From Candidatus Woesearchaeota archaeon (lineage in GTDB: Archaea; Nanobdellota; Nanobdellia; Woesearchaeales; J110), in the NCBI GenBank assembly GCA_003694805.1, contig RFJU01000038.1, forward strand, positions 1 to 48,431: 48,431 nt of DNA. The letters are read 5' to 3'. A model generated the notes under the pieces. It was not told the DNA's origin and did not search any database. It saw only the letters and a program-made list of their open reading frames with translations. The translations under genes and the position numbers were made by a program. Shown piece after piece: positions 7,089 to 22,701 of the stretch; position 1 is the stretch's first letter; every line of letters begins with the position of its first letter.

Positions 7089-7098
7089 ATATTTAAAT
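7089..7098 (-). promoter_or_regulatory. TATA box (ATTTAAATAT) for the 637-aa protein gene
   Basis: Centred ~30 nt upstream of the ATG at 7064. Confidence 0.55.
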
Positions 7099-7133
7099 CT
7101 ACCTCCTTTCACCCCTCTTCAGAGAAGCCACTC

Positions 7134-7141
7134 AAAAAAAA
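7134..7141 (-). terminator. oligo-T (T8 on minus) terminator after the 431-aa gene
   Basis: A8 on the plus strand, 18-25 nt downstream of the stop at 7159-7161. Confidence 0.5.
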
Positions 7142-7158
7142 CACCTCTTGCCCAAGCG

Positions 7159-8454
7159 TCATCCTGACTTTTTCTTGCGAAAGAAAAGCACGTACACATT
7201 AAGCAAGACAAGCAGGAACAGCACAAGGTACGCGACGCCTAAAGGGGATGCCAGTACTCCGAACACGCCGCCCGCGCGCTCTTCCTTTGGCGGCTCGACG
7301 ACAGAGAACAACACATCCGACGTTGAGGTCTTATTCGCGTAGAAGAGCATGATCGTCGCGGGGTACTCGCCTACTTCAAGCCCGCGCGTATTCCAATACG
7401 TCGTGAGCACTCCGCGAGAAAAACCTTGCAGCGTTATCAATGGCGTCCTTATCACCTCGCCAGCAACGCGCACTTCTGCAAACACATCCCCAATATTCCC
7501 CTTCCAGTCACTCTCAACAATGATATCGAGCTGGTTAATCACTCCTTTCCGAAACACGCGCGTGTAGTTCACAACACGAACGTCGAGCTCGCCAACGCGA
7601 AACGACGCAGAAAGGGGCAGCGACAGCCCATCATAGAAGAGCAGGGCGGACGCGTGATAAGACCCTTTCTTCAGGTCTTTCGTCGGAATCGTAGCGGTTA
7701 GCGTTGTGCTCTTCGTTGCCGGAAGCGAAACACGGTCCGTCTCGAACGACCCTACCGCTTCCCCCTCAGGACCTGTCACGTTAATAATAGCAAAGAGGCG
7801 GACAATATGACTCAGCGTCCAGCTCTCCACCTGCACCCGCGCCTCGGCGGGCTCGCCCTGATTCACGCTGGAAACCTGCAAACTCGCCTTCACCGCTTTC
7901 TCAGGACCGAGGACGCGCGTAATAAACCCTGTTCTCACCGTGGCAAGAGCCGCAATCTGCACTGTCTGCTCGGGAGGAAGCTCCGCGGCGGCGATGAACG
8001 TCTTATACTGTCCCGGCTCCAAGCCGGGAGGATGAGTAATGTGCACGGTCACCTTGCGCGGACCACCATCAGGGGACGGGTCGTCAATCACGACGTTCTC
8101 ACTCAACGCACCCTGGGCATACACGCTTATCCTCGGCGCATCCTCCACGGCGAGCTCGAAGGTAAACGTCTTGCCCGGCTCGTAGAGGAGCGTTCGCTGT
8201 TCTAAGGGCAAGCTCGTAATCTTCACCGCCGCTGCGGGTGCCGCCGCGCCCGCGACGAAGAACAACACGAGCAGCGCGGCCACTGCAAACAAAGGAAACC
8301 CGCGGCGAGAAAAACGCGAAAGGAGAAAACGCAGACACGCCAGCGAGGACACCAACCAGGACACCAACCAGGAAACACCGTGAAGGAGATAAAACAACCG
8401 ACAAAAAGGAACGAATTCAGGGTCCTTGAAGTAATTGGCGTGCATGAGCCGCAT
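7159..8454 (-). CDS. Ig/CARDB-like repeat membrane protein (431 aa), paralogue of the 450-aa protein; C-terminal TM plus basic tail
   Basis: Shares 'ESDWKGNIGDV..EVRV' and 'YWNTRGLEVGEYPATIMLFY' with 9685-11037. C-terminal 'AYLVLFLLVLLNVYVLFFRKKKSG'. Start set to the ATG at 8454, preceded by GTGAGGAGGAG; the TTG at 8484 is an alternative. Confidence 0.75.
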   Translation of the reverse strand: MRLMHANYFKDPEFVPFCRLFYLLHGVSWLVSWLVSSLACLRFLLSRFSRRGFPLFAVAALLVLFFVAGAAAPAAAVKITSLPLEQRTLLYEPGKTFTFELAVEDAPRISVYAQGALSENVVIDDPSPDGGPRKVTVHITHPPGLEPGQYKTFIAAAELPPEQTVQIAALATVRTGFITRVLGPEKAVKASLQVSSVNQGEPAEARVQVESWTLSHIVRLFAIINVTGPEGEAVGSFETDRVSLPATKSTTLTATIPTKDLKKGSYHASALLFYDGLSLPLSASFRVGELDVRVVNYTRVFRKGVINQLDIIVESDWKGNIGDVFAEVRVAGEVIRTPLITLQGFSRGVLTTYWNTRGLEVGEYPATIMLFYANKTSTSDVLFSVVEPPKEERAGGVFGVLASPLGVAYLVLFLLVLLNVYVLFFRKKKSG

Positions 8455-8492
8455 TCTCCTCCTCACACGTGCCCCTTTCACCAAGCCCTGCT

Positions 8493-9128
8493 TTACGTGT
8501 CGTCACACACCGCTTCAATCGTCGCCTGGTGCGCTCCTGCATCAATCTCCTGCGAGAAATTCACTAACACCACAAACTTCATGGAGTCAGCAGTTTCCGG
8601 CGAGTACTGAAACGACGTGGAGCCACAATACACCGTACCGGGCTTGCTCGTGTTCACATCAACGAAAGCAGTATTCGTCAAGTTGCCGCAACTCCCAGAC
8701 TCGTTGTCAAGACCGGCAATTTGGAACTGAGGAGACGTGCTCCCTGACAGGAACTGCGCCGCTGTCGCGTTCGAGTTCACATACACCGTCGCGTTCACAT
8801 TCCCATTATTCTCCAAAATAAAGTCCTGACTGGGAGAGCTCAACCCTCCAGAACAACCACTGCCCGTCGTGCCGTTGCTCGTCATGTAACAACGCTGCCC
8901 TCCAGCAACGTACCCGGACCCGAAATCAACGAGATTGAACGAGCCGAACGTGCAACCGACCGAAGTCGTGACGGTCAGCGTGACATTCCCTGTTTGGTTG
9001 CTCGTCGCAGCCCCGGTCGGGGGGCCGGCAAACCGCTCCACTTGATTCAAGCTAAAAAACGTTCCGAAAAGGGATATCAACATCGCCGCGATCAGCAACA
9101 AGCCCAATGTTTTATTTGACACGTCCAT
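8493..9128 (-). CDS. secreted 211-aa beta-rich protein; candidate fibre subunit, similar to the C-terminal domain of the giant protein
   Basis: N-terminal hydrophobic segment 'LGLLLIAAMLISLFGTFF'. Mature part aligns by eye with giant aa ~3680-3818. SD GGGGAGTGAT lies upstream of the ATG at 9128. Confidence 0.75.
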   Translation of the reverse strand: MDVSNKTLGLLLIAAMLISLFGTFFSLNQVERFAGPPTGAATSNQTGNVTLTVTTSVGCTFGSFNLVDFGSGYVAGGQRCYMTSNGTTGSGCSGGLSSPSQDFILENNGNVNATVYVNSNATAAQFLSGSTSPQFQIAGLDNESGSCGNLTNTAFVDVNTSKPGTVYCGSTSFQYSPETADSMKFVVLVNFSQEIDAGAHQATIEAVCDDT

Positions 9129-9134
9129 TCTTCA

Positions 9135-9365
9135 TCACTCCCCACTTGGTTTTTCAATAGTCAACACCACCTCACCTGTCGGCGGCTTTTGAATCGTCAA
9201 CGCAACTTCTCCTCTCGCGACAGGGCTTACCCCTCCTGGTTGGGCCTGCCTTGCCGCCTTGATTTGCCCAAGCTCGTACGTCACCGTCATGACGCCAAGC
9301 ACGGAAATGAGCAGGGTCAAAAGAACCAAGACAAGAATCGTTCTTCTCGAGATGTCTTCGGCCAT
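9135..9365 (-). CDS. 76-aa membrane-anchored mini-protein with two tandem 'GEV[AV]LTI[QE]KP' repeats
   Basis: TM 'ILVLVLLTLLISVLGVMTV'. Tandem 12-aa repeat at the C-terminus. TATA 9388-9397 is centred ~28 nt upstream of the ATG at 9365. Six-nt gap to the next gene. Confidence 0.6.
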   Translation of the reverse strand: MAEDISRRTILVLVLLTLLISVLGVMTVTYELGQIKAARQAQPGGVSPVARGEVALTIQKPPTGEVVLTIEKPSGE

Positions 9366-9387
9366 GTGCATCTTCTTCGAATACCGC

Positions 9388-9397
9388 CTATTTAAAC
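9388..9397 (-). promoter_or_regulatory. TATA box (GTTTAAATAG on minus) for the 76-aa/211-aa/431-aa operon
   Basis: Position relative to the ATG at 9365. Confidence 0.55.
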
Positions 9398-9554
9398 TTT
9401 TCTATTGACCATTATAAAGTCACAACGTCACAAAGGTTGCACAACAACACCCACGCCAAGAACCCGGCAGGCGCGGACGAACAACGGCGAGCAAAGCTTT
9501 GAAAAGAACAGAAAGGAAAACAAAGCACACCTCATCGAACAAACAGTTCACCTA

Positions 9555-9586
9555 GTCAACGACCAAGTCAACGAGGGCATCAACGA
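9555..9586. repeat. three phased copies (period 12) of [GA]TCAACGA
   Basis: gtcaacga at 9555-9562, gtcaacga at 9567-9574, atcaacga at 9579-9586, all within the 313-nt non-coding gap between the two surface operons. Confidence 0.6.
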
Positions 9587-9619
9587 CTCGCAAGAGCAAA
9601 CCGAAGGAACAAAAGTCAT

Positions 9620-9627
9620 AAAAAAAA
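9620..9627 (-). terminator. oligo-T (T8 on minus) terminator after the giant-protein operon
   Basis: A8 on the plus strand, ~60 nt downstream of the 450-aa gene stop (9685-9687). Confidence 0.5.
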
Positions 9628-9684
9628 TCCCTTACAAAGGAACAAAATAAGCGTGCAGGCCTCTTCAGGGCTCTCCGATCCCGG

Positions 9685-11037
9685 CTACTTCTTTCTTCGG
9701 ATGGAGAAGAAGAGCACAATATTCATCACGATAAGCACAGCAACCAGCAAGACCAACACGTTGTACGACGATCCCCCCTTCTCTTCCACGCCAACCACGC
9801 GGCCGGAAACGCCACCTCCCTTCACCACCGCCTCATCAAGGGAGAGAACGGTCTCAAACAGCCTGCTTGAAGAAGCGCCATCATAGAGCAAATCCAGATT
9901 CACATCGTACTCGCCCGGCACGAGGCCCTGCGTATCCCAATACGCCGTGACAACTTCTTCCTTGTGCGGCCGAACCCTGGTCGGGACCGTGCTAAACGTG
10001 CTCAACTCAGAACCCGAATCATCAATGACGTTCACCTCCCCCTCCACGTTCTCAATCGGCTCGTTCCAATCACTCTCCACCGTAAAGTCAAGCTTCGCAA
10101 TCTCCCCAAGACGAAAGGAACGAATATCCAAACCTTTAATCCTGATGAACTTCCTCCCAATCGTGAACGCCTCGCCAAGCTTCTCCACCTCATCACTGTA
10201 CTCCAAAAACACCTCAGCGTAGTACGCTCCTGGGTTGTGCTTCCCCTCCCACGAAGCAACAACTTTTCCTTCCTCCTTCGCGTCAAGCGAAATCATATTC
10301 GAACGCAACTCCACAATCTCCTCATTGTTCGCTCCAAGAATGCGAACGCGAGCGTACGCGTCTTCAATCCGTTCCGTCCCAAAATTAAACACGGAAATCG
10401 TGAACACAACAGGACTGTCCACCCCTCCCTCAGACACGTGCAGCTTTGCCTTCGCATACGTTCCCGGGTACGGAACGTTCACAATAATTTGGCTTGCAAC
10501 ACCGGCCGTCGCCGTCACTTGCGACGTCTCCGTCCTCGTGTTGAACAACAACCCCTGATCCTGCGTCAAAACAAAAACACCCTCTTCGTCAAAGTAATCC
10601 TCCGGGACGTGAAGCAACACCACCTTTCCAACGTGTTGCCCTGGCGAAGGCGCCTCATCAGGCAAACGGACCTTGACGGTGAACGTCTTCTCCCCCTCGT
10701 CCTGAGAGAGCGCAATGAGCGGCTTCTCAATGCGGATGCTGTCTTTGAGCTCTCCTTCTGCAAATATGATAGCATGAAAGTCCACTTTATCGTTGTTAAT
10801 GACGCGGTACGTCAGCTCCTTCTCAAGACCGGGAGCGAAGTCAATACGCGTCCTCGCCGGCGCGATCCCAAGCGCTAACGCGTCCTCAGCCACGGCGCAG
10901 AAGAGCAGCGCTGATAGCAAGACAAGAAGTGCGAACGCCCCCAGCCGACGATCCAGCCGACGAGCTACCAACACCGAGCGCGCCCCCGCGCGCCTTACAC
11001 GTTCCTTCCTTGTTCTTTCACCAATCATTGCCTTCAC
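9685..11037 (-). CDS. Ig/CARDB-like repeat membrane protein (450 aa), paralogue of the 431-aa protein; signal peptide plus C-terminal TM and basic tail
   Basis: 'ESDWNEPIENVEGEVNV', 'YWDTQGLVPGEYDVNLDLLY', C-terminal 'YNVLVLLVAVLIVMNIVLFFSIRRKK'. GTG start overlaps the giant gene stop (GTGA); the ATG at 11028 is an alternative. Confidence 0.8.
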   Translation of the reverse strand: MKAMIGERTRKERVRRAGARSVLVARRLDRRLGAFALLVLLSALLFCAVAEDALALGIAPARTRIDFAPGLEKELTYRVINNDKVDFHAIIFAEGELKDSIRIEKPLIALSQDEGEKTFTVKVRLPDEAPSPGQHVGKVVLLHVPEDYFDEEGVFVLTQDQGLLFNTRTETSQVTATAGVASQIIVNVPYPGTYAKAKLHVSEGGVDSPVVFTISVFNFGTERIEDAYARVRILGANNEEIVELRSNMISLDAKEEGKVVASWEGKHNPGAYYAEVFLEYSDEVEKLGEAFTIGRKFIRIKGLDIRSFRLGEIAKLDFTVESDWNEPIENVEGEVNVIDDSGSELSTFSTVPTRVRPHKEEVVTAYWDTQGLVPGEYDVNLDLLYDGASSSRLFETVLSLDEAVVKGGGVSGRVVGVEEKGGSSYNVLVLLVAVLIVMNIVLFFSIRRKK

Positions 11038-14000
11038 GACACCGGATACTCCGCAATGATAAACAACTGGCTTTGCTTTGCCCCGCCCGGTTCGTTGAGC
11101 GGCACTTCCACTCTGAACTCAACCTCGCCCTCATCACCTGCATCAACATACGAGAGGTTCTTGAGCACGAGCACACTCTCATTAGACACGTTCGTCCATG
11201 ACGTCGCCGACGACCCCCACACAAAGCTCCCCGCCTCGGACGAGTTCCCCGCGGCGAACTGGAAATAACTCGTATTCAGCCCAACAGCATCCCACAAGCC
11301 ATCAGAGGCGCGGAGAGAAACATCTGCCACGACGTTCCCGTCATTCCTCACGCCAAAGGGCAAAGGATTGTCATCGGTCGTGTCGTTGCTCTCCAGCACG
11401 TTCATCGAACCAAAGTTCGTCTCTGCATTCGTCAAGGTAATAATAACAGAGGACTGAATAGTGAAGTTAAAGATGGACGCCCACGCACTGCACCCTTCAT
11501 CGTCACACGCCTGCACCGTCCAATTATACACTCTATCCACGCACAACTCTTCAGTCGTGTAGTTCGACTCGGAAAGGTTCGAGTACTGGTAGCTCGGGCA
11601 GACTGACTGGTTAATACTCAAGTTATACGAGAGCGTGTCCCCGTCGGCGTCGCTCGACGTCCAATTCAGATTCACGTTGCGCTCAAAAATGGACGTGTTG
11701 CCATTGGAGGGATACAGGAGTGTCGGAACATCAGGAAGAGTGTTTTGGATCGTGACGTTGTTGCTCTTTTTCTCCAAAGAGTAGAGTTCCCCATCATACC
11801 CTGTGACGTTGCACCACCACACCTCTCCTTTTGTCGTGTTCCCCGCCCCGAGAGTGAACACGTTCTCCTCGCCGCTCGTTGCTGAAACGCTTCCTGAAAC
11901 GTTTGCGACACCATCCTTATACCACGTATAATTAATCCACAACCCTGATCCAAGACCATCGTCTGTCACGTTGACGGTGCAGTTCAAGTCGTCTGTCGTG
12001 TAGGGAGCGAGCGGCGTGACGTTCACGTACACCACCTGCGGCGCCTGGTTCGTGAGGGATCCGTTACAAAAATACGTACATAAAAACGCAGGGGATGAAT
12101 TATCGCACCAATCACCGCTCCACGTATTCGAGTCGCCGTCGAACACGTCGTAGGCACCTCCGGACCCGCAAAACACGTTGGACGCCATTGACGATCCTGA
12201 ATCGGCCGATGTGGCAAAGCGAATAGCTGAGGTGAGCGAGGAGGAAACGTTGTTGTTCTCAATAGTGTGCCCGGTCGACGTCCCGCTCACGTTAATGCCT
12301 ACGTCGAAGTCGAGGATTGTGCAGTTTTTGATAGTGTACCCATCTGCTTCGGAAAGGTTGAACGCTACACTCCCTGCCGAGTCGTTTCCTTGCACAACAC
12401 CGCCCCCGCAGTCAATGTATGTTTGCTCGTTCTGATCACCCGAGTCAAAACCCACAACGGAGCCGTTTACGAAAATGGAAATGTTGACGAATCGGTTTTG
12501 CGTGTTGATCGTTCCCTCTTCAATATCAACACCGGAGCTTCCCGACCCCGCAATAGTAACTTTGGTGAAGTTGTTTGAGGAGGTCCCGTCCTGCAGCAAC
12601 ACCCCGCTCGTCGAAAACGTCTGGCCGAATTGCTCGATAGATACGTTCACAAAGCGAGACTCCTTCACGAGGGATAGGTCAAGCCCTGCTCTATTGACGT
12701 TTTGAATGGACACATTCTCAACAAGAACACCGGTCAACGAACTTGAAAACCCTGTCACTATAACTCCTTCATCCCAACCGCGTATGATGCAATTCGAAAC
12801 CGTCGTTTTCGAAGCTCGATAGATTGAAACACCATCGCCAAAGGCAGACGCACCCGTCAAAGTTCTTCCTCCACAATCGAAGCGGTTGTTGCTCCCGCCA
12901 TCAAGTTCTACCCCTGAAGAGGTAGTAAGCCCGACAGAGACGGACGTGTTGACGAACTGATTGTTCGACGATGGGTTGCCTGAGGTGCCGACCTTTATTC
13001 CTTTTGCATCGACTGTTACGTTCACTTCGGAGAAGTTGTTGTTTGATGAAAGAGAAACAATCTCGAGTGCATACTCACTGCTAGAGCCCACGATGTCAAG
13101 ATTGCTGACCGTGTTTTGCCCCGACGAGGAAAAACTAACACCTTTTGCAAGAGAAGCTCCAGTCATGTTCACGTCGATCAAGGAGTAGGTGTTTTTGTTC
13201 GATGATGCGCTTTGCAGCGCGACTGACGCGTGCGAAGTCAGCGTCAGGTTCTGAAAGGTGCTGTTCTCCGAAGACGTCACGAACACCCCAGTGCTAAAGT
13301 TCGATACAACGCAATTTTTCACCGACACGTTGTCATACCCGTTCGTCGTCACGCCATACCCGACATCCTCCCCTATGATAGCGTAGCCGGCACAGTCCAG
13401 CACGATGTTGTCCGCGCCAAACGTGATGCATGTGTTATTAAATGTGAAGTTTCTCGTCATCGTCACATCAGACGTGATTGTGTCACAGCCCTGCTCGATT
13501 GTTCTCGAGGTTGAATTCACGGCGCTCCCAACATCCGTCTGGTCCCTGGGCGTGACTTGACAGAGCCAGGACTCGCCCAATGCCGTGTTCGTGTATGACA
13601 AGGTCACCGACTCCTCCGTCCCGTTCGTCACCTGCACTTCCGAACTTGAGAAGTACGCACCGTCACGAAACCACGACACGTTGGCCAACACAACGTCGTT
13701 AGGATCAGCGTCTTCAATGATGAACGAACAGTTCAAATCCTCATGCGTCATTGGCGAGGCAGGCAGAAGGGTCACGCTCGTCACGTTGGGCACGTTGTTC
13801 GCCACGGGGGTTCCGTCGCACAAGTAAGAACACCACGCCCACCCCGCGCGCGAGTCGCAGGAGTTGTTCGTCCACGTGTTCGAGTCCGCGTCGTACGCGT
13901 CGTACGCCCCTCCTGAACCGCAGAAATAATTGTTCGAGAAGGTTGACGACGTCACAGAGCTCACACTCACATTCACGCCTTCCTGAACCGACGATGATAC

Positions 14001-17000
14001 GTTATTCTCCTCGACAACACTCCCTGAACTCGTCCCCTCAAAGAACACGCCTTTTCCGAAGTCCTTCACCGTGCAGTTGCGCAGCGTCACGTCGTCGGCC
14101 GAGGAAACGCGCACGCCAAACGAGGAGGCGTCATCGTTGCCTGAAAGAACGCCCCCGCCGCAATCAATCTTGTTCGTGTCCGATGTTTCATCGCTCACAT
14201 ACACCGCAGCATACGCGCCCGTCAAGGAAATGGAAAAGTCTGTTACGTTGTTGCTTGAGGAACTCGCGAAAAAGACTCCGTTCCCGCTGAGGCTGGAGAG
14301 CGCAAAGGACGAGATTGCTGACGACGTGACGCTCGATAAGTAATACCCGTTCGCGCTCGAGCTGACATTCACGTTTGTAAACGTGTTGCCTGAAGAACTC
14401 GCCGCGTACACGCCCCGTGAGAAGTCAGTGATGGAGCAGTTCCCCACGGTTGTGCCGTCAGCGCTGGAGAGGTACACGCCGTACGTCCCGCCCGTGTCGC
14501 TTCCGTCGATAGTGCCTCCTTGGCAGTTGAAAACATTATTGTCGTGCAACTCTCCGTCCACGTACACGCCGTGGTGGCTCGCCCCCGACACGCTCACGGA
14601 CAACCCTGTGACTTTGTTGCTCGTACTCGCCGAAGCGCCGGAAACGTAAACGCCGGCATCCGTCACGGATCCTCCCTGGACCGTCAAGGAGGAAAGGTTG
14701 TTTGACGAAGCGCCTTCGAGCCACACGCCGTAGAGGTCCGCATCGTTCACCGACACGTCACTGATGACTGACTGCGAAGAACCACTCAAGTAAACACCAA
14801 CGTCGGACGCATTCACTGTCAAGGAAGACACTTGCGTCCCAGACCCCGCACCTGCGTAGACGCCATAGGTGAAGTTCACCACGGTGCAGTTCACAATACT
14901 CGTGGATGACGCATCGTTGAGGTAAAACCCGCCGATCGCGTTGGCAGAGCTCGGCGTTGAAACAACACCCCCCTGACAGTCAATAACGTTCGTAGCACTT
15001 CCCTGTGCGTCATTGAAAAACACACCATAATACGCAGCCGGATTGGCCAAAGCCCACGAAATGTTTACTCCCTCAAACCTGTTTGACACTCCCCCGCCCG
15101 ACCCGAAACGAATCCCGTACTCCGTGTCAGCATCCCCCTGAACGACGATCTGAGAAAAATTGTTTGCTGAAGCGCCGTCTCGGAAGAGGATGCTGGCCTT
15201 CGAAGAATTTATCACGGTAATGGTCGTGAACACGTTGCTCTTCGCACCGCCGAGAACATCAACGCCTCTCGTGTTCGAAACGACAGTGACGTTCTCCACC
15301 ACGCTCTGGTTCGTCCCGTCAAGCCACACTCCGCTCGTGAAATCAGAAATCACACAATGAGCAACGGAGATGTTCACCTTTCCCGACGCGTTAACCCCCC
15401 TCGTGAGGGGAGAATCGTCACTGTCAATAGTATGCCCTGCGCAATCCAACGCTATGCTGTCCGCGCCAAACGTGATGCACGAAGCTCCCGGACTGCTCAA
15501 GTCTGTTGAAAGCATTGAGTCGTTATAAATCGTTCCGCACCCCGAAATGTTCTGCCAGATGTGAGATGCGCTGGAGTTGAGAGATGATCCGGTGGCGTAC
15601 CCGTCGCTCGGCGTCACTTGGCAGAGCCAATCCTCTCCTGCACCCGTGTTCGCTGCCGGGAGTGCGACGTCTTTTCTCGTATTGTTTAAGACAGCATACA
15701 CCCCGCTCGAAAAGAGCGTTCCGTCCTTGAACCAAGACACGTTCGCCGAGAGGGAGTCGCCCGTGTTCGGATCGGTCACGATGAACGAACAGTTCAAATC
15801 CTGCGTATGATACGCCTTGGCAGGAAGAAGCGAAACCGACGCAACCGTCGGTGCCGTGTCGGTAACCGTGACCGTGTTCGACTGGTTCTCTGACGAATAA
15901 TTCGTGCCGTCAAACCCTGTGACGTTACAGTACCATTGCTCCCCGTACGTCGTGTTCCCCGCCCCCAAGATGAGCGAGTACGCCGTCCCGTTCGTCACGC
16001 TAACCTGGCCTGAACTATACAGGGCGCCGTCACGCACCCAGGTGTAATTCGCCCAGAGGCCGCCGCCGCCACCGTCATCAACAATAGTGAACGTGCAGTT
16101 CAAGTCCGACGCGTTCTCAGGCACGGCCGGTGTCAAAGCCAAACTCTCCACCGAAGGCGGCTGGTTCGTACCGACAAACAACGAACCCTGCTCGCTCACC
16201 ACGCCATACCCTCCTTTTCGGCACGTGATGTTATACGTTACTACGCCGCTTGACGAGAACGAGAAGTTACGCTCCCACTGCTGCGCCGACGCGTTCCACG
16301 TCAAGTTCACACTCGTACCGTTCGAAAAGTCCACCCTGCAAAAGTCCACCACGCCGAACACGCCCGCTTCTGACACGCCCGTCCCGGAAGAAACAGCCAA
16401 GAACTCTGCAACGCCGTCGCCGTCCCAGTCTTCAACGTCAAGCGAACGCTTCGCATCCAACGTGTTCACGTCGCTCGCGAGCGGGTAGGAAAACGACGCA
16501 TTCATCACAAACGACCCATCATCAATAAGCCACGCCGTATTATCCCCTCCCGCCGCGAGAACCTCATCCACGCTGTCCAAGTCAACATCAAACACCTCCA
16601 CGGACGCGACGTAGCCGCTTCCGCTCTTGCTCAACGACCACAACACATCCCCCGACTCATCCACCGCGACGAGCTTGCTCGTCCCGTTCTGGGCGAACAC
16701 GTCATCAACATAGCCGTCACCATCAAAGTCGCCGGCGCCCATCTCCCACCCCACACCGACCGACACGTTCCACAGGCTCACGCCATCCTTATCAAAAGCA
16801 CGCAAAAGCCCCGCGGTGACGTCGTGCGCGACGATATCGCTCCTCCTCCCGTCGTTGTCAATATCCACAATAGCAACTGCGCGGAACTCATTGGACACGT
16901 TCCAGAGTACATCGCCCGACGCGTTCATGACAAGCAAGTAATTAGCAGTCGCTGATACGAGCTCGTCGCCGGGCCATTGGTCAGAGATGTCCCACGCTTT

Positions 17001-20000
17001 GACCTCGTTGGGCGTTCCCAGCGACGCGGAAACGTCAAACATTTTCGTCCATGACGAGCCGTTCGTCGTTGCCGCACCTGCACGCCCCGTTGATCGAAGG
17101 GACGCGTAGTCATCACGGTACGTCCCGCCGTCAAGGTCCGCTAAGACTGCCGACAAAATGCCGCGGAACGAGAGCAGCTCAACCTGCGAGCCCGAGCCGT
17201 TCACGACCTTGAACTGATCAACCACTGTTGTGTACGCAAAATCATCCACGCCGTCCCGATCAAAATCGCCACGCTCAAGACCGCCAATATAATTTGAAGC
17301 ATTCCACCGGTTGCTTCCTGACGCGTTATACGCTATCAGATTCCGAACGCCCGATGTCAAGTCGCCAATGACAAAGCCGTCCCGCGTCTTCGTGTGCGAC
17401 GAGCTCCAAAAGAGCGCGTCGTGCGCTTCGTGCGTAAAGTTTTGAAAAAACAGCTTCCTCCCGAGTGTCTCATTGTTCTGTCCGAGGAAGTCCGCCGCGA
17501 AGAGCACTGACTCGTTCACGTCAGCACTCGACGGCGTCTTGTCAACAATGGAAGCAGTCAGGGAGGATATCGTCACCGCGGAACTGTTCTGCGAAACATT
17601 CACAAACCCATTATCAGCAGTCACTTCACACTTCCACGACTCACCCGGCGCCGTCCATCGCCGGTCAATGCCAAGCCTGCTGGTAGCGAGCGTTCCCTGC
17701 ACAGAAGCATTCATCAGCCACGATTCGCGAGAACGCGAGAAGATCGTCCAATTCGCAGCGCTTCTATCCCGCCACCAACGCACCAGAACAGTGATGTTCG
17801 CGCCGTCTGACTGGGACACGTTGAACTCGCAAGAGAGAGAATCATTCGCGTACGGCGACGCTGGCGTGATGTTCACGCTGTCAAACACGGGCTGCGGGCC
17901 GCTGTGCACGGTCACGCTCCTTTGCTCTGTTTCATTCGTGTTCCCGCTCGCGTCGATCGCGTACGCCTTGAACGTATACGTCCCATTCACGAGGCCGGTA
18001 AAGTTATGCCTGTACGGGTAGGCACTCGCGTTCCACGACGCGTTGATTTCTTCAGGAGCGAGCACGCGATTATAGAGCTGCACCTCATCAAGAGACCCGT
18101 TGAGGCCCTTGCTCGTATCAGAACGGTACGCGCCAAGCACCAAGGGCTCCGTGTCCGCCGCGACGGACCAGTCAATCCCGATCTGCTCGGAGCCGAGGAA
18201 GACGCCGTTCTTGTAAAACTGCACTTCAGAACTATTGAACACAATACCCATGAAGACAGGCTGGCCTGCTGAGAAGAACCCTGCCTGCCCTGAGGAAACC
18301 CACTCCGCCGAGGCGTTGCTGAACGAAACATCCAAGTCCCCGTTCGTGCGGGCAATAACGTACCAGCCGCCTGTTCCGTTCTGGCCGTTGCTCACTACGA
18401 CATCATCGGTCGCCGTCGGGTTCCACTCAACCCACGCGAGAAGCGAGCCCTCCTCCCCGACGCGGTACTGCGAAGCGTTTGAACAATCAAGCCGCGCCGA
18501 GCCGTCAAACACCCGCTTGCCACCCCGCTGGCCCATAGGCGACCACGACGACCCATAATCAGTGCATGCTTGCTCATAGGAAGACTCCTCCGTCACATCC
18601 GCGCCGCTCGTGAACTGCATCCACAACGCTAAGGTGCTGTTCCAATCAACCAAGACCGAATGGTCGCTTGCGTCGCTGGAGGAAACATTGACATAAACCG
18701 CCGTGCTCGCCTGCGTCCCCCCCGTAGGCGTGGGCGACACGAAGGAAATGGAAGGCGCGACCGTTTCTGCAACAATAACTGTCGTGCTCGACTGATTCTC
18801 AGAGGAGTACTCAGTTCCATCATACCCTGTGACGTTGCACCACCACTGCTCCCCTATTGACGTATTCCCCGCCCCGAGGATGACTGACGAAGCCGTCCCG
18901 TTCGTCACACTGACCTGGCCGGACACGTTCTTCACACCATCAACGAACCACGTATAATTAGCGAAAAGCGTATCCCCCACGTCTTCATCCGTAATGACAA
19001 AGGTGCAGTTGAGGTCCTGCGACGCATTCGCAATGGCAGGGGACAGACTCAGAGAAGCAACCACCGGTGCGTTGTTGTTGCGCACCCCCGCGCACGTCCA
19101 ATAACAAATCGAACCAGGGCTCCCCGCGTCGCAGGAGTTGTTCGTCCACGTGTTCGAGTCCGCATCGTACGCGTCGTACGCCCCAGACGAGTTGCAAAAG
19201 AAGTTGTTCTCAAGCACGCCGCCAGAGCTCCCGATGTCGGCAATGTTCATGCCGTACCCCGTGCTTGACGAAACATTATTCCCCCGAATACTCGCTCCCG
19301 TCGCGCTCGTGGAGAGGTAGATGCCATCGGCGAAATCCGTGATGGTGCAGTTCCCAATAGTGATGCCGTCAGCACTACTAACGCGCACGCCGTTCGATCC
19401 CGACGAGTCGTCGCCGTCAATGAAGCCGCCCGCGCAGTCAAAATAGTTGTTATCGCTCGCGTCATTATTGACCAGGATGCCGTAATGGTTCGCCCCGTTT
19501 ATGGTAATGTTGAAGTTCACGAAGGAATTGTTCGCGTTCCCGCCCGTCTGAAGACGAATGCCAACATCTCCCACGGCCCCGCCGTCAATCCTGACATTGG
19601 TAAAGTTGTTTCGGTTCGATCCGGTCGTGAAGCTCACCAGCTCAATACCGTACAACGCGTTGCGGTCTGCCGTGATATCGTCAAAGACGCTGTCCGTCAC
19701 TTTACGAACATACAACCCGTCTTGGCTGTTGTCGCTCGCGACGATGCCGGACAGGTTCAACCCGTTCGCGTTGTAGAGGTAGAACCCGTGGTTCGTGTTT
19801 CCCGACGCGTTGATTGACTGCATAGCAATATTGTTTTCGCTGTCGACATAGATGCCGTGCGTGTTACTCGTGGCGGTGAGGTTAACGAGAAGCGAGTCCT
19901 GAGACGGCACAACCCCCCGCTCAAAGTCCTTGACGATGCAGTTCTGCACCGTGCTCACCCCGCCGAACGCTACGTAAAACCCTCTCGTCCCGGCAGTGTC

Positions 20001-22490
20001 TGCTCCCAGGATGGTGCTGTCTTGGCAGTCGAACAAGGTATCGTTCGCCGATGTACTTGATACGTACACAGCATACGAAGTGCCGGTGTAATTCATTGAG
20101 AGGTTCACAAAACGATTCTTATCCCCGCCTTCAAGCCACACCCCGTACGTTCCTGATGCAACAATGTCGATGTCGGTGAAGTTGTTCTCATCAGAAGACC
20201 CTCCTGTGAGGTGCACGCCGTACGTGTCGTTAAAACTGGACAGCCCTGTAACGGCGTTGCGCGCCGAGTTCGCAAAGTCAATGCCGTACGTGTTCGACTC
20301 GGTATAGATGTTTTCAATAATGTTGTCATTCGCGTACGCTCCTGAAGAGATGCCTGTCGCGAAGTCTTTGATGTTGCAGTTCTTTATCGTGACGTTGTCC
20401 TGCCCGTTGATGTCAATGCCGGAGGTCGAAGCGGTGTCGTTTCCCACAATCCAATAGCCGGCACAATCCAGCGTGATACTTCCCGCGCCGATGGTGAAGC
20501 ACGTCGAGCCGTTCACGGAAACGTTGCCTATCAGCGTCGTGTCCTGCGTTATCGTCCCGCACGATTGATTGAGCGTGATGTTCAGCCCCGCATAGTCAAA
20601 CAACGCGCCGTTGTTGAGGGCGCCATTGTTCTTCACATAGACACGCACCTTCACATCGTTAAGCTCAGAAACGGTGTCCACAACGCTGGAGAGATCGCAC
20701 GCGTAGGTCGTGTACGACGTCGCAATATTGGACGCGACACACATTTGCTGCCACGCGCTTCCGTTCCACCACGTGAAGTTCAAATCAATTGTCGTGAGTG
20801 ATGTCGTCTTATTATACGACCACACAGACGTAACGTTCTCAATCCCTACCAATCCGTTGAACGTGTTCGTCCAGTTCACCTGAAGGTACGAACCACTCTG
20901 CGTTCCTGACTCAAGAATGTTGGCGTATGCAGCATCCCTTGACGTGACGTTGGACGTCACCACACCATTATCCCCTAAGGCTGCTGTACTATAGGCGAAG
21001 GCGTAGTCCGGCTCTGATTCCGCATCTCCTTCTCCGTATGCCGGGTCTTGTGGCGTGAGGGGGAACGTGTACGCCTCGCCGGGCGTGAGGCGCATCACCG
21101 CTTCCCACCGCCCCGTGCACACCTTCCCCGCAAAGTCATACTCCTTGCACTTGAAAAGCCGCCTCCCCTTTGCAACCGCCGTCACGTTTGCAAGGGAGAA
21201 ATTCACCCGTGTCGGGTCGATCGCGTAGGACTGCAAGAACGGCCTGCCCAGCCACTCGCTGCTCACGTCATCAAGCCCTATTGTGAGGTTTTCCTCAAAG
21301 CGCGCGTCTGCAAAGACGATGCGCGCAACGGGCATCTTCTCCGGGAGTACCTCGAGTGCGTAGCGAGCGTTTCTCTGCGGAGAGGAAACAACCCGTCCGT
21401 CAGGCGCCAAGAACCGAACGGTAGCATTCGTCTCCTTCACCGCACTCGCGATAGTCACAATGCACGAGGGGCACGCTTCAGCGCGGGCCTTCACTGTCTT
21501 CAGCACCTGCCTCTTCTTCCCTAAACCCGCGCCCTGCGCACTCCGAATTGTGATCCCTTGCTGATCTTGCCGCTCACGCACCCCGCTCTTTGTTCCTTGA
21601 ACCCCTCCACGAACTCCTCCGGAGTCACGCGCCTGCCCAACCGACGCTGAAGGCCCTTCCACGTGAACGGTGAACACTTCGCTCACAATGAGATGGTGCA
21701 AGTCAGACACGTACACGAACGCGTCATACGTGCCGTTGCGCACCGCCGTGACGAAGAGCTCGCTCCCCTTCACGCTCAAGAGCAGCCCTGGCGACCCGCT
21801 CACATCGTAAAAGAGAACATCCCCGTCAGGGTCGCCGAAGAAGCGGGAGAGATCGACCCGCACCGTGTCCCCCACGGTGAGGTTGTGGTCAGGAAGCGAA
21901 AACACCTGCCGCGGAGGGGTGTTCACCCCGATAAAACGATACTGGACACTCTCGATATGCACGACTTCATCAACGCCTTCCACCCTCAACTGAAGAGGCG
22001 TTCCCGCAAACGTGCACGCCTCGCCGCACGCGTTCCGAATAAGCAGCGGCCTTTGCAGTGCTTGCGTACCCGACGCGTTCGCGTTCGCCGAAGCATGCTT
22101 GTAGAGCAGGTACGACTTCCCAGGCGTGTCCACCCATACCGTAAACGGGGCATCGTAGAGCACGCGCGCATTCAAAGAAAGCGCCTGGACCGCTGGCAAG
22201 TCCAACGCGATAGTTCCGCTGCCCGTAATCGTCTTGCCAATAAGCACTGTTTCGTTGCGCACAACCTTCTTGGTGAAAAAGCCCGTCGTGCCCCCTGGCG
22301 AGAACAACGGCAGAGAGAAGAGTGAAATGAGCATGACTGCAAAGAGTGCTGTTATCAGGACTGGCTTTTGCCACCGCTCCCACAACGCCCTCGCTTCAAG
22401 GCGGTGGCGAGACTCCTCGAGCATGCGCTCTAGCTGCGCATTGCTCTTCTCAAGACGCCGCTTCCATTCCTCGTCACGCCTCTGCGTCAC
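11034..22490 (-). CDS. giant surface protein (3818 aa): N-terminal anchor, cadherin-like domain, 3 right-handed beta-helix (PbH1/NosD-like) cassettes, 6 'LNCTF' Ig-like modules, LamG, FG-GAP propeller, FN3-like domain, C-terminal subunit-like domain
   Basis: Uninterrupted 11.4-kb ORF. Motifs: 'LDCAGYWIVG' and 'NCTITDFADGIYLS' (beta-helix); 'LNGSLDEVQLYNRVLAPEEI' (Laminin_G_3-type); 'GDFDRDGVDD', 'GDFDGDGYVDD', 'DWDGDGVAEF' (FG-GAP); 'FGDPDGDVLFYDV' (cadherin-like). GTG start is preceded by GGAGGAGGTGG. Confidence 0.9.
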   Translation of the reverse strand: MTQRRDEEWKRRLEKSNAQLERMLEESRHRLEARALWERWQKPVLITALFAVMLISLFSLPLFSPGGTTGFFTKKVVRNETVLIGKTITGSGTIALDLPAVQALSLNARVLYDAPFTVWVDTPGKSYLLYKHASANANASGTQALQRPLLIRNACGEACTFAGTPLQLRVEGVDEVVHIESVQYRFIGVNTPPRQVFSLPDHNLTVGDTVRVDLSRFFGDPDGDVLFYDVSGSPGLLLSVKGSELFVTAVRNGTYDAFVYVSDLHHLIVSEVFTVHVEGPSASVGQARDSGGVRGGVQGTKSGVRERQDQQGITIRSAQGAGLGKKRQVLKTVKARAEACPSCIVTIASAVKETNATVRFLAPDGRVVSSPQRNARYALEVLPEKMPVARIVFADARFEENLTIGLDDVSSEWLGRPFLQSYAIDPTRVNFSLANVTAVAKGRRLFKCKEYDFAGKVCTGRWEAVMRLTPGEAYTFPLTPQDPAYGEGDAESEPDYAFAYSTAALGDNGVVTSNVTSRDAAYANILESGTQSGSYLQVNWTNTFNGLVGIENVTSVWSYNKTTSLTTIDLNFTWWNGSAWQQMCVASNIATSYTTYACDLSSVVDTVSELNDVKVRVYVKNNGALNNGALFDYAGLNITLNQSCGTITQDTTLIGNVSVNGSTCFTIGAGSITLDCAGYWIVGNDTASTSGIDINGQDNVTIKNCNIKDFATGISSGAYANDNIIENIYTESNTYGIDFANSARNAVTGLSSFNDTYGVHLTGGSSDENNFTDIDIVASGTYGVWLEGGDKNRFVNLSMNYTGTSYAVYVSSTSANDTLFDCQDSTILGADTAGTRGFYVAFGGVSTVQNCIVKDFERGVVPSQDSLLVNLTATSNTHGIYVDSENNIAMQSINASGNTNHGFYLYNANGLNLSGIVASDNSQDGLYVRKVTDSVFDDITADRNALYGIELVSFTTGSNRNNFTNVRIDGGAVGDVGIRLQTGGNANNSFVNFNITINGANHYGILVNNDASDNNYFDCAGGFIDGDDSSGSNGVRVSSADGITIGNCTITDFADGIYLSTSATGASIRGNNVSSSTGYGMNIADIGSSGGVLENNFFCNSSGAYDAYDADSNTWTNNSCDAGSPGSICYWTCAGVRNNNAPVVASLSLSPAIANASQDLNCTFVITDEDVGDTLFANYTWFVDGVKNVSGQVSVTNGTASSVILGAGNTSIGEQWWCNVTGYDGTEYSSENQSSTTVIVAETVAPSISFVSPTPTGGTQASTAVYVNVSSSDASDHSVLVDWNSTLALWMQFTSGADVTEESSYEQACTDYGSSWSPMGQRGGKRVFDGSARLDCSNASQYRVGEEGSLLAWVEWNPTATDDVVVSNGQNGTGGWYVIARTNGDLDVSFSNASAEWVSSGQAGFFSAGQPVFMGIVFNSSEVQFYKNGVFLGSEQIGIDWSVAADTEPLVLGAYRSDTSKGLNGSLDEVQLYNRVLAPEEINASWNASAYPYRHNFTGLVNGTYTFKAYAIDASGNTNETEQRSVTVHSGPQPVFDSVNITPASPYANDSLSCEFNVSQSDGANITVLVRWWRDRSAANWTIFSRSRESWLMNASVQGTLATSRLGIDRRWTAPGESWKCEVTADNGFVNVSQNSSAVTISSLTASIVDKTPSSADVNESVLFAADFLGQNNETLGRKLFFQNFTHEAHDALFWSSSHTKTRDGFVIGDLTSGVRNLIAYNASGSNRWNASNYIGGLERGDFDRDGVDDFAYTTVVDQFKVVNGSGSQVELLSFRGILSAVLADLDGGTYRDDYASLRSTGRAGAATTNGSSWTKMFDVSASLGTPNEVKAWDISDQWPGDELVSATANYLLVMNASGDVLWNVSNEFRAVAIVDIDNDGRRSDIVAHDVTAGLLRAFDKDGVSLWNVSVGVGWEMGAGDFDGDGYVDDVFAQNGTSKLVAVDESGDVLWSLSKSGSGYVASVEVFDVDLDSVDEVLAAGGDNTAWLIDDGSFVMNASFSYPLASDVNTLDAKRSLDVEDWDGDGVAEFLAVSSGTGVSEAGVFGVVDFCRVDFSNGTSVNLTWNASAQQWERNFSFSSSGVVTYNITCRKGGYGVVSEQGSLFVGTNQPPSVESLALTPAVPENASDLNCTFTIVDDGGGGGLWANYTWVRDGALYSSGQVSVTNGTAYSLILGAGNTTYGEQWYCNVTGFDGTNYSSENQSNTVTVTDTAPTVASVSLLPAKAYHTQDLNCSFIVTDPNTGDSLSANVSWFKDGTLFSSGVYAVLNNTRKDVALPAANTGAGEDWLCQVTPSDGYATGSSLNSSASHIWQNISGCGTIYNDSMLSTDLSSPGASCITFGADSIALDCAGHTIDSDDSPLTRGVNASGKVNISVAHCVISDFTSGVWLDGTNQSVVENVTVVSNTRGVDVLGGAKSNVFTTITVINSSKASILFRDGASANNFSQIVVQGDADTEYGIRFGSGGGVSNRFEGVNISWALANPAAYYGVFFNDAQGSATNVIDCQGGVVSTPSSANAIGGFYLNDASSTSIVNCTVVNFTYGVYAGAGSGTQVSSLTVNASDVGVYLSGSSQSVISDVSVNDADLYGVWLEGASSNNLSSLTVQGGSVTDAGVYVSGASASTSNKVTGLSVSVSGASHHGVYVDGELHDNNVFNCQGGTIDGSDTGGTYGVYLSSADGTTVGNCSITDFSRGVYAASSSGNTFTNVNVSSSANGYYLSSVTSSAISSFALSSLSGNGVFFASSSSNNVTDFSISLTGAYAAVYVSDETSDTNKIDCGGGVLSGNDDASSFGVRVSSADDVTLRNCTVKDFGKGVFFEGTSSGSVVEENNVSSSVQEGVNVSVSSVTSSTFSNNYFCGSGGAYDAYDADSNTWTNNSCDSRAGWAWCSYLCDGTPVANNVPNVTSVTLLPASPMTHEDLNCSFIIEDADPNDVVLANVSWFRDGAYFSSSEVQVTNGTEESVTLSYTNTALGESWLCQVTPRDQTDVGSAVNSTSRTIEQGCDTITSDVTMTRNFTFNNTCITFGADNIVLDCAGYAIIGEDVGYGVTTNGYDNVSVKNCVVSNFSTGVFVTSSENSTFQNLTLTSHASVALQSASSNKNTYSLIDVNMTGASLAKGVSFSSSGQNTVSNLDIVGSSSEYALEIVSLSSNNNFSEVNVTVDAKGIKVGTSGNPSSNNQFVNTSVSVGLTTSSGVELDGGSNNRFDCGGRTLTGASAFGDGVSIYRASKTTVSNCIIRGWDEGVIVTGFSSSLTGVLVENVSIQNVNRAGLDLSLVKESRFVNVSIEQFGQTFSTSGVLLQDGTSSNNFTKVTIAGSGSSGVDIEEGTINTQNRFVNISIFVNGSVVGFDSGDQNEQTYIDCGGGVVQGNDSAGSVAFNLSEADGYTIKNCTILDFDVGINVSGTSTGHTIENNNVSSSLTSAIRFATSADSGSSMASNVFCGSGGAYDVFDGDSNTWSGDWCDNSSPAFLCTYFCNGSLTNQAPQVVYVNVTPLAPYTTDDLNCTVNVTDDGLGSGLWINYTWYKDGVANVSGSVSATSGEENVFTLGAGNTTKGEVWWCNVTGYDGELYSLEKKSNNVTIQNTLPDVPTLLYPSNGNTSIFERNVNLNWTSSDADGDTLSYNLSINQSVCPSYQYSNLSESNYTTEELCVDRVYNWTVQACDDEGCSAWASIFNFTIQSSVIITLTNAETNFGSMNVLESNDTTDDNPLPFGVRNDGNVVADVSLRASDGLWDAVGLNTSYFQFAAGNSSEAGSFVWGSSATSWTNVSNESVLVLKNLSYVDAGDEGEVEFRVEVPLNEPGGAKQSQLFIIAEYPVS

Positions 22491-22701
22491 GCTCCACCTC
22501 CTCCCTTTTCTTTTTCATCCGGTGATACACGGTCCACACGGTGCGGTCATCACGGTTGAGCAGCTCGGCAATTTGTGCAAAGGTCAAACCACGCTCTTCC
22601 TTGAGGAATGCAACGAGCGACTCCATGACAGAAAATGTTCTGTCGCGAAAAATAAATGAGGGGATGTTAAGGCTCTTGTCTGCAAAGAGCCTGCGCTTCA
22701 T
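22474..22701 (-). CDS. small helix-turn-helix DNA-binding protein (75 aa), first gene of the giant-protein operon
   Basis: 'LTFAQIAELLNRDDRTVWTVYHRMKKK' is an HTH-like segment. Its 3' end overlaps the giant ORF start by 17 nt and contains that gene's SD. Start chosen at the ATG at 22701 (uncertain). Confidence 0.6.
   Translation of the reverse strand: MKRRLFADKSLNIPSFIFRDRTFSVMESLVAFLKEERGLTFAQIAELLNRDDRTVWTVYHRMKKKREEVERDAEA

Follow-up and report, generated by a model that had tools for sequence, protein, structure and literature searches.

The window analysed here, the whole 48,431-nucleotide (nt) stretch of contig RFJU01000038.1 from a Candidatus Woesearchaeota archaeon, contains a minus-strand run of closely packed open reading frames (ORFs) between positions 5151 and 22779. 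Its products include a 3818-amino-acid (aa) giant adhesin, a 211-aa pilin-fold protein, a small strand-bearing membrane protein and two paralogous membrane proteins built from immunoglobulin (Ig) domains. DPANN archaea live attached to host cells, and we know of hardly any attachment molecules in Woesearchaeota. We consider the chances about even that this conserved cell-surface locus builds an adhesive fibre held together by beta-strand complementation.

All six ORFs that an initial annotation had listed between 7159 and 22701 are present as described, on the minus strand (Table 1). The span proposed there for the locus was too narrow, since genes for a 653-aa protein, two ribbon-helix-helix (RHH)-like proteins, a 1246-aa protein and a 206-aa protein also belong to the conserved locus; the functional unit thus extends from about 5151 to 28596. 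In the window, the RHH-RHH-1246/206 module (23593-28596) is inverted and sits upstream of the operon that begins with a helix-turn-helix (HTH) gene and the giant gene, so that this operon and the RHH-1246 unit share one divergent intergenic region. The giant apart, a Pfam scan gave no above-threshold match for the main ORFs of 5151-22701, and NCBIfam has no model for any of the six proteins originally described.

Table 1. Features of the surface locus, in positions of the window.
Feature	Positions	Strand	Remarks
Small HTH gene	22474-22701	minus	75 aa from MKRRLF; end overlaps the start of the giant gene
3818-aa giant adhesin gene	11034-22490	minus	stop overlaps the start of the 450-aa gene (GTGA)
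Giant, transmembrane helix (aa 43-63) followed by T-T-G-F (aa 68-71)	22278-22364	minus	candidate signal-anchor and processing site, read from the translation
Giant, C-terminal pilin-like domain (aa 3674-3814)	11049-11471	minus	61.4 bits against the profile of the 211-aa family
450-aa protein gene, type A	9685-11037	minus	start overlapped by the giant's stop (GTGA)
78/76-aa protein gene	9135-9371	minus	probable start 9365; 313-nt gap after the 450-aa ORF
78-aa protein, strand motif 1 (GEVALTI)	9192-9212	minus	read from the sequence
78-aa protein, strand motif 2 (GEVVLTI)	9156-9176	minus	read from the sequence
211-aa pilin-fold protein gene	8493-9128	minus	adjoins the 78-aa ORF
211-aa protein, candidate donor strand (GNVTLTVTTSV, aa 47-57)	8958-8990	minus	alternating hydrophobic residues, kept across the family
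441-aa protein gene, type B	7159-8484	minus	true start probably downstream of TTG
653-aa protein gene	5151-7112	minus	conserved member outside the first-described span; 46 nt beyond the 441-aa ORF
Two RHH-like ORFs, 62 and 74 aa	23593-24104 (23593-23781, 23880-24104)	plus	'MVNINI..DDLH..IKL'
1246-aa surface protein gene	24101-27841	plus	conserved locus member
206-aa helical cytoplasmic protein gene	27976-28596	minus	conserved locus member
Operator-like palindromes	23166-23355	none	divergent promoter region

To place these genes in context, we took 58 related loci from the GTDB set, one genome per species, with a hand-picked 8-sequence alignment as the seed, and mapped gene-family profiles on these loci and the window (59 loci in all, many of them truncated by contig ends). 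The consensus order is an optional HTH gene, a large adhesin gene, a 450-like gene (A), a 78-like gene, one or two copies of a 211-like gene and a second 450-like gene (B). These are followed by a gene for a transmembrane (TM) helix plus one Ig domain ("144-aa"), an optional third 211-like gene, a 653-like gene, one or two RHH-like genes, a 1246-like gene and, convergent to the latter, a 206-like gene. This order is tightly conserved across about 50 genomes. For most of the 58 loci the label reads Woesearchaeota, Nanoarchaeota or Nanobdellota. Some 17 records are titled "uncultured Methanosarcinales archaeon" (binchicken co-assemblies, L013, L015, L016, L026 and L027 among them); we suspect a placeholder or a mislabel.

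The giant begins with a coiled cytoplasmic segment and a single TM helix and ends in a pilin-like domain; between them are blocks of parallel beta-helix, a LamG-like domain and repeated modules of Ig-like type. Pfam recognises Beta_helix (7.5e-49, with 13 parallel beta-helix stretches), NosD (7.7e-35) and Laminin_G_3 (1.9e-13) in it. The resemblance of its last ~140 aa to the mature 211-aa protein, first noted by eye, is borne out by a profile made from 137 sequences of the 211-aa family, which scores 61.4 bits on aa 3674-3814 and aligns there over profile positions 49-208, that is, over the whole mature domain; a 5-sequence profile compared with the same region by hhalign gives a probability of 74% and an E value of 2.8e-5. 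A pairwise BLASTP comparison of the 211-aa protein with the giant's C-terminus is insignificant (E 0.13); the relationship is seen only with family profiles. Among the 339 ORFs of 300 aa or more in the fetched loci taken together, exactly 18 have such a C-terminal domain (33-68 bits). The 17 proteins besides the window giant range from 345 to 2763 aa, and the pilin-like domain is the only feature common to these large adhesins. In 18 of 18 cases a 450-like gene lies directly downstream.

The N-termini of the giants carry a further common element. Five other giants with complete N-termini have a TM helix followed, at a like position, by [IL]-T-G-[FYL], for which the window giant has TTGF; the giants and the 211-aa family do have a post-TM motif, [ILV]-T-G-[FYL]-A-T, in common. 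The initial annotation had instead linked the giant, the 211-aa and the 78-aa proteins through a hydrophobic N-terminal segment. That link holds between the two small proteins; for the giant it fails, as its "MLISLF" scores 0.5 bits as a homologue of the 211/78 N-terminus and is a chance identity inside a TM segment. As an aside, the part of the giants that precedes the single TM helix is 40-100 aa long, charged, coiled-coil-like and cytoplasmic (22302-22490 in the window; also in L022, L033, L058, L062 and L064), which is unusually long for a cleavable signal peptide.

The 211-aa protein has a conserved helix (aa 5-32), a linker with P-T-G-A-A-T at aa 37-42, an N-terminal strand and a beta-sandwich (aa 59-210). 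Its AlphaFold2 (AF2) model, based on 137 aligned homologues, has a predicted local distance difference test (pLDDT) score of 91.6 and presents the same helix, a low-confidence linker, an extended segment at about aa 47-58 and an eight-stranded sandwich. The extended segment (NVTLTVTTSV) is unpaired in the monomer model according to DSSP. When this model was compared with the PDB by Foldseek, the top 50 neighbours were mostly subunits of donor-strand-exchange fibres: TLP-1a, FimG with its donor peptide, FimF, FimA, FimI, PapE, PapH and PapK, and further CanA cannulae, CfaB, HdaB and SafA. The best single match is TLP-1a (E 2.5e-3, probability 1.0, 11% identity). The chaperone-usher pilins give E values of 0.011-0.1 with TMt of 0.36-0.50, and the CanA entries 9h8b, 7uii and 9hdi give 0.08-0.19; there was no match at E <= 0.001. 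In the model, the class of fold match is consistent despite these weak scores, and ordinary complete Ig domains, which are plentiful in the PDB, score no better than the fibre pilins. TasA, AbpA and thread subunits are absent from the top 50, as are type IV pilins and every chain of the WxLIP-WxL entry 9i25. The predicted fold is pilin-type rather than unrelated, its nearest solved structures being donor-strand-complemented fibre subunits.

At the level of sequence, the family is large and, so far as annotation goes, anonymous. Searched exhaustively with its profile, it counts 2063 cluster representatives at E <= 1e-3 and 1488 at E <= 1e-10, and nearly all of the best 150 of the 2063 matches are 200-250 aa long; a word-indexed search with the 211-aa protein returned only four relatives. 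Among genomes that stand for one species each, the family is confined to metagenome-assembled genomes of Woesearchaeota/Nanoarchaeota. The sources name its members only "hypothetical protein", and neither Pfam nor NCBIfam has a model for it; it carries no annotation that would give it another role. Among the 137 members scanned, no Pfam family covers the protein, no Fimbrial/SCPU-type family matches at E <= 1 (there are only 3 weak DUF4402 matches, 0.0028), Peptidase_M73/TasA is without a match, and WxL (PF13731) matches 0 of 137 at E <= 1. Searches of PDB sequences with the 211-aa and 450-aa proteins and their profiles produced no useful match.

The N-terminal region of the 211-aa family is distinctive. 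Its helix follows the consensus [DE]-[ILV]-S-N-[KR]-[ST]-L-A-x-L-L-V-A-A-I-V-I-S-L-G-G-T. No twin-arginine (RR) motif is found in the N-termini of the family, and the residue pair before the helix is [KR]-[TS] in ~110 of 152 members and [KR]-[GA] in 17, which is not the pattern of a class III signal peptide. Between helix and domain lies a variable, low-confidence linker of 15-25 aa, and some 8-12 residues after the TM helix comes the [ILV]-T-G-[FYL]-A-T motif. In this motif T stands at -2 in 96 of 150 members and A at +2 in 81 of 150, the G at -1 being demanded by the search pattern itself; TG[FY]A follows the TM helix in about 100 of 152. Placed as it is behind a highly conserved signal-anchor helix, this sequence signature may point to a processing or sorting step of its own. 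Signal peptidase I sites are governed by the -3/-1 rule. TG/[FY]A fits this rule, and if the protein is cleaved there the mature subunit would start ~8 residues before the strand, like other donor-strand subunits. There are one to three 211-like paralogues per locus; in some related loci, the third is divergent and does not have the conserved "SNKTL" helix.

The 78-aa protein (76 aa from its probable start) consists of a TM helix and two strand motifs, with no globular domain. Its homology to the 211-aa family covers that family's first ~55 residues, with the helix, linker and first strand (E 1e-6 to 1e-11). The description of this protein as an anchor plus two repeated strand motifs proved to be a conserved property, with at least two motifs of the G-x-V-x-L-x-I type in 54 of 59 distinct homologues. 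The family was recovered by profile iteration on the fetched loci only, a word-indexed search having found no homologue. Of the 56 loci with a 211-like gene, 54 have a 78-like gene next to it. The post-helix TG/[FY]A motif is missing from this family, and the protein would stay anchored. We propose from these sequence features that it is a membrane anchor or terminator and a candidate for filling the last groove.

The 450-aa and 441-aa proteins are paralogues, as had been suspected (BLASTP 9e-24, 27% identity over 325 aa), and the 441-aa protein matches the 450-like family profile at E 4e-114. In 44 loci, 450-like and 211-like genes are neighbours. In the AF2 model of the 450-aa protein (pLDDT 79.7, 11 sequences), three beta-sandwich domains lie between a signal region and a C-terminal TM helix. 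Generic tandem-Ig proteins dominate the Foldseek list of this model; at ranks 9, 14 and 19 stand the Enterococcus faecium WxLIP structures 9i1y (WxLIP alone) and 9i25_C (WxLIP bound to a long WxL protein), with E values of 7e-9 to 7e-8 and target-normalised TM-scores of 0.34-0.37, the highest values among the first 20. The top 50 include no PapD-type chaperone. By modelled fold, then, these proteins resemble the WxLIP of Gram-positive WxL loci and not PapD. Pfam WxLIP_HBD matches 8 of 13 family members, below threshold (best 27.5 vs 28.9 bits) and on generic CARDB-like domains; CARDB itself matches 450-like homologues below or near threshold, and the WxLIP PGBD (DUF916) is seen in 1 of 13 at E 0.1. 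A ~25-aa low-confidence beta-hairpin insert, GVFVLTQDQGLLFNT (aa ~145-172), is found in domain 1 of the 450-aa protein. This hairpin was considered as a general strand donor and rejected, since it occurs in only 4 of 18 adhesin-associated 450-like proteins and in none of the subunit-associated ones.

The further members of the locus lie on either side of these core genes. The 653-aa protein has a TM helix, a cadherin-like domain, a Gly-rich linker, Cys-rich "GVDCGGxCxxC" repeats, a second TM helix and a ~215-aa cytoplasmic helical domain. Its Pfam matches (Big_9, Cadherin_4) are weak, a homologue in the related locus L001 matches at 3e-61, and a 653-like gene is present downstream in 30 loci. 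The membrane-anchored 1246-aa protein is multi-Ig/cadherin-like (Pfam Big_9 1e-20, He_PIG and PKD); its orthologues match at up to 1.6e-248, and the gene lies downstream of the 653-like gene in ~18 loci. The 206-aa protein matches positions 464-635 of the 653 profile and thus corresponds to the C-terminal domain of the 653-aa protein, and its homologues are convergent to the 1246-like gene in 12 other loci. The tail of the 653-aa protein and the free-standing 206-aa protein are the only cytoplasmic domain pair of unassigned role in the locus. The "144-aa" protein, 137-190 aa in length, has an N-terminal TM helix and a single Ig domain with homology to domain 1 of the 450-like proteins; its gene is found in 34 of the 59 loci (e.g. 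L001 5333-5803 and L004 2468-2887) and is missing from the window. The third profile iteration for this family drifted to 109 matches and was discarded.

Two kinds of putative regulator flank the divergent intergenic region. The HTH protein matches Pfam HTH_23 (2.6e-5) and Sigma70_r4_2 (3e-4), both below threshold, and its homologues adjoin the large adhesin gene or the first 450-like gene in 7 other loci. The RHH-like ORFs, which begin MVNINISISDDLHQQIKL... and MKNINITLPDDLHHQLKL..., have weak Pfam matches to ParD, FitA-RHH and RHH_5 (RHH/ParD/CopG-like); in at least 11 other loci, one or two homologues directly precede the 1246-like gene. The region contains a perfect 10+1+10 palindrome, ATTACTTACA-A-TGTAAGTAAT, at 23259-23279; it recurs at 23337-23355 and, in degenerate form, at 23166-23186. 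The pattern has 3 matches vs 0.02 expected. Another, separate palindrome, AACTTAGTTAACT/AGTTAGCTAAGTT, is found at 23441-23467. Judged by sequence, these palindromes probably serve as operators, bound by the HTH or RHH proteins.

The remaining genes of the window encode SRP54, glycogen-metabolism enzymes, a MoxR/DUF58/BatA group and a PadR-ABC-FtsX module. The genes for the MoxR AAA_3 ATPase, DUF58 and BatA/VWA proteins (a Bat-like "aerotolerance" module) come directly after the surface locus, at 28504-31836 on the plus strand. The other module (32813-38297, plus strand) comprises PadR (MarR in L001), an ABC ATPase, a ~400-450-aa CARDB/DUF11 membrane protein and two MacB/FtsX permeases. In L001 this module (8483-13293) follows the pilin-like cluster directly downstream; in the window, ~25 kb separate it from the pilin-like genes, and it lies 4 kb past the end of the extended locus. 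The CARDB proteins of the two modules are homologous (E 5e-65). On the plus strand of the whole 48 kb, GC skew is strongly negative (-0.06 to -0.45) and AT skew mostly positive, whichever strand the genes are on, and the skew is most extreme over the plus-strand genes at 24-34 kb.

How might these parts work together? In a strand-complemented fibre, the 211-aa protein and the giant would be exported with a signal-anchor helix and cut just after it, at the common [ILV]-T-G / [FYL]-A-T site. On the 211-aa subunit, the cut would free an N-terminal extension with its alternating-hydrophobic strand, and this strand would be received by the groove in the preceding subunit's pilin-fold domain or, at the distal end, by the C-terminal pilin-like domain of the giant, whose beta-helix/LamG adhesin would be the tip. 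The 78-aa protein would keep its TM helix, give the last strand and tie the structure to the membrane. The membrane-tethered three-Ig paralogues could act at the membrane surface as holders or chaperones of their cognate partners, the adhesin for the 450-aa protein and the subunit for the 441-aa protein, and the HTH and RHH proteins, with the palindromes of the divergent promoter, would regulate the locus. From the homologies, the folds and the synteny described above we infer the cleavage, the strand insertion, the length of the polymer and the polarity of its assembly, and likewise the roles of the 450-, 441-, 653-, 1246- and 206-aa proteins. For strand complementation speak the fold neighbours of the 211-aa model, the unpaired strand, the strand-only anchor, the common tip domain, the subunit paralogues, the post-helix motif and the synteny. 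The match of the 450-aa model to WxLIP counts for it as well, since in that system AF2 predicted that a WxLIP strand inserts into WxL (PMC10599100), and the tafi model offers a precedent (PMC11821415). The initial annotation had already recognised the logic of a subunit and a tip adhesin; with the pilin-type fold, the conserved synteny and a family that has no annotation, this logic stands, the strand-only anchor included. The fibre itself is still a proposal.

Several observations weigh against this proposal. The AF2 models are of the 211-aa and 450-aa proteins as monomers; the groove and the strand insertion are predicted. The Foldseek scores of the 211-aa model are weak throughout (E 2.5e-3 to 0.1, TM-scores 0.35-0.50). 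The N-terminal helix of the 211-aa family is conserved far beyond an ordinary cleaved signal peptide and may be retained. The locus contains no signal peptidase, sortase or usher-like gene, and the C-terminal domain of the giant carries an equivalent strand in cis. The 211 N-terminal strand resembles the 78-aa strands slightly more within a locus than between loci (13.23 against 12.38 +/- 0.37, p = 0.014), which amounts to weak support, because the homology of the two families confounds the comparison. Finally, each type of pilin-fold gene is paired with a 450-like gene of its own, an arrangement as compatible with 1:1 complexes as with a chaperone role.

This last point leads to the strongest rival, a non-polymeric display complex like that of WxL loci, in which each membrane-anchored three-Ig protein would bind its cognate pilin-fold domain 1:1 by beta-sheet augmentation and the adhesin would be displayed on the cell surface with no fibre at all. 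We regard it as rather unlikely. Four observations favour it: the four-part gene logic is that of Csc/WxL clusters (PMC1534035, PMC9772566, PMC10599100), the 450-aa model matches the WxLIP structures 9i25_C and 9i1y, WxLIP_HBD matches 8 of the 13 450-like members scanned, and one dedicated 450-like gene follows the adhesin in every case while another follows the subunit genes. Against it, the WxLIP_HBD matches are sub-threshold and fall on generic CARDB-like domains, Pfam WxL is not detected in the 137 members of the 211-aa family that were scanned, and the top 50 neighbours of the 211-aa model include fibre pilins and no chain of 9i25. A display complex would, moreover, leave the strand-only 78-aa protein and the multiple 211-like paralogues unexplained.

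Another explanation is that the products are independent membrane-anchored glycoproteins of a glycocalyx or S-layer-associated coat, which have domains in common through duplication and undergo no specific strand-mediated assembly. All products of the locus are indeed TM-anchored or secreted and rich in N-x-S/T sequons, and many of their domains are of generic Ig, CARDB or cadherin types according to Pfam. We nevertheless find such a coat improbable, given a gene order tightly conserved in so many genomes, a pilin-like domain so specific that it is confined to 18 large ORFs, all of them paired with a 450-like gene, and the conservation of a gene for a strand-only protein.

Least probable is a divergent type IV pilin-like system, in which the 211/78 helix would form the filament core after prepilin-type cleavage, with the ATPase and platform encoded elsewhere: the very strongly conserved hydrophobic helix, the architecture of a helix followed by a beta-sandwich and the [KR]-[GA] pair of the 17 members speak for it, and against it stand the T or S found at -1 in most members in place of the canonical G or A, the variable linker, the lack of type IV pilins among the top 50 fold neighbours, the placement of the giants' post-helix motif behind cytoplasmic N-termini of 40-100 aa, which is incompatible with class III leaders, and the pilin-like domain at the giant's C-terminus, which works without any helix. 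In agreement with the earlier reading, Pfam scans of the main ORFs in the window found no PilB, PilC, prepilin peptidase or other type IV pilus gene, and PilB/PilC-type genes and prepilin peptidases are likewise absent from the conserved neighbour families of the related loci.

If strand complementation is the assembly principle, the implications go beyond this contig. A giant adhesin and pilin-fold subunits, conserved in dozens of species-level genomes, make a concrete candidate for an attachment apparatus. To our knowledge, donor-strand-complemented fibres have so far been recognised in bacteria, Thermoproteota and haloarchaea; such fibres would then extend to DPANN, and with two unusual parts added, a strand-only membrane anchor and membrane-tethered multi-Ig partners. 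The latter link the locus by fold and gene logic to the WxL clusters of Gram-positive commensals and pathogens, which are poorly understood. More speculatively, and with more doubt than conviction, we suggest that a monoderm "tethered-chaperone" donor-strand pathway builds a host-attachment appendage in Woesearchaeota and perhaps other DPANN: membrane-anchored WxLIP-like Ig proteins would prime the pilin-fold subunits, the giant beta-helix adhesin would cap the fibre by means of its C-terminal pilin domain, and a strand-only TM peptide would end and anchor it, with ancestry or at least mechanism in common with WxL/Csc systems. Were this true, WxL/Csc clusters too would work by strand complementation.

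The claim that this gene set matches no described system was too strong, as its gene logic parallels both WxL/Csc clusters and the haloarchaeal Tat-fimbriae (tafi), the TafA-G system of Haloarcula hispanica, of which taf-like clusters are known in Thermococcales/Archaeoglobus (PMC11821415). For tafi, donor-strand exchange among a tip, a major subunit and a membrane terminator has been proposed from AlphaFold models (PMC11821415). Both are archaeal single-membrane, usher-free clusters with a small Ig-like major subunit, a small transcription regulator in the cluster and a larger tip protein that combines a LamG-type region with a subunit-like domain (as proposed for TafC), and both have a membrane protein proposed as terminator or anchor, TafF in tafi and the 78-aa protein here (PMC11821415). 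Unlike tafi, the locus has neither a TafD-type signal peptidase nor DUF5305 (TafG) in Pfam scans of the window, nor a twin-arginine signal, and its subunits have a long conserved signal-anchor helix. The two three-Ig TM proteins, the strand-only anchor and the 653/1246/206 genes have no taf counterpart, and sequence homology between tafi and the locus proteins was not detected.

WxL/Csc clusters consist of CscA/WxLIP, the small WxL protein CscB, the large WxL protein CscC and the small LPXTG protein CscD (PMC1534035, PMC9772566, PMC10599100), and AF2 predicted that a WxLIP strand inserts into WxL (PMC10599100). Here too, a small protein is accompanied by a large one that bears its domain C-terminally, by an Ig-TM protein and by a further small protein with an anchor; the parallel is one of gene logic, not of demonstrated homology. 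The Ig-TM protein in question, of 450 aa, has WxLIP fold similarity (PDB 9i25, 9i1y) and a C-terminal TM helix. The differences are that no WxL motif or Pfam match is present and the small protein's fold is nearer to fibre pilins; that the three-Ig proteins have three Ig domains, not two, and no clear DUF916 signature; and that the anchor is a TM helix with duplicated strands, archaea having no peptidoglycan or LPXTG. The organisms also differ, Woesearchaeota here and Firmicutes in WxL/Csc.

The chaperone-usher systems (Fim/Pap/Csu) provide the nearest solved folds of the 211-aa model as a group, and share with the locus an alternating-hydrophobic N-terminal extension, a two-part tip adhesin with a pilin-like C-terminal domain (FimH, PapG) and the concept of a terminator or anchor. 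They differ from it in that there is no usher, outer membrane or Pfam Fimbrial match here (nor did any ORF of the window match a Pfam PapD chaperone or outer-membrane usher), and in that the role of anchor would fall to a strand-only TM peptide instead of a complete pilin. Closer in cellular setting are the TasA superfamily fibres (TasA/TapA, AbpA, AbpX, CanA/CanX) and the Sulfolobus threads (PMC9674648, PMC10151520, PMC9245690, PMC12518558, PMC9715654), which are N-terminal donor-strand fibres of monoderm cells and archaea, chaperone-free or minimally assisted. TapA, an anchored strand donor that nucleates TasA, is conceptually like the 78-aa protein (PMC10151520). The 211-aa family is set apart by the lack of a Peptidase_M73/TasA match among its members, and TasA-group subunits have ordinary Sec signal peptides; a SipW-type signal peptidase was found neither in Pfam scans of the window ORFs nor among the conserved families of the related loci. 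TLP-1a, a CryoSeek environmental fibril (PDB 9IKJ), is made of Ig-like protomers, each completed by another protomer's N-terminal strand (PMC11494351). Unlike what we propose for the 211-aa protein, it is a tubule whose strands are donated in an n+4 pattern. A Flavobacteriales bacterium supplies its closest predicted relatives; the source organism and gene context of the fibril are not known.

Because donor-strand fibres are already known in archaea, namely ABP, threads, cannulae, AbpX and tafi (PMC9245690, PMC9715654, PMC12518558, PMC11821415), the principle of strand complementation is not in itself new. Our literature search found no paper that links DPANN or Woesearchaeota with donor-strand fibres. 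What does appear to be new is a subunit family with no sequence link that we could detect to the Fimbrial, TasA or WxL families, and its restriction to Woesearchaeota-type DPANN archaea. The same appears to be true of the strand-only TM anchor, of the paired WxLIP-like three-Ig membrane proteins and of the conserved accessory genes (653, 1246, 206, HTH and RHH) that accompany them.

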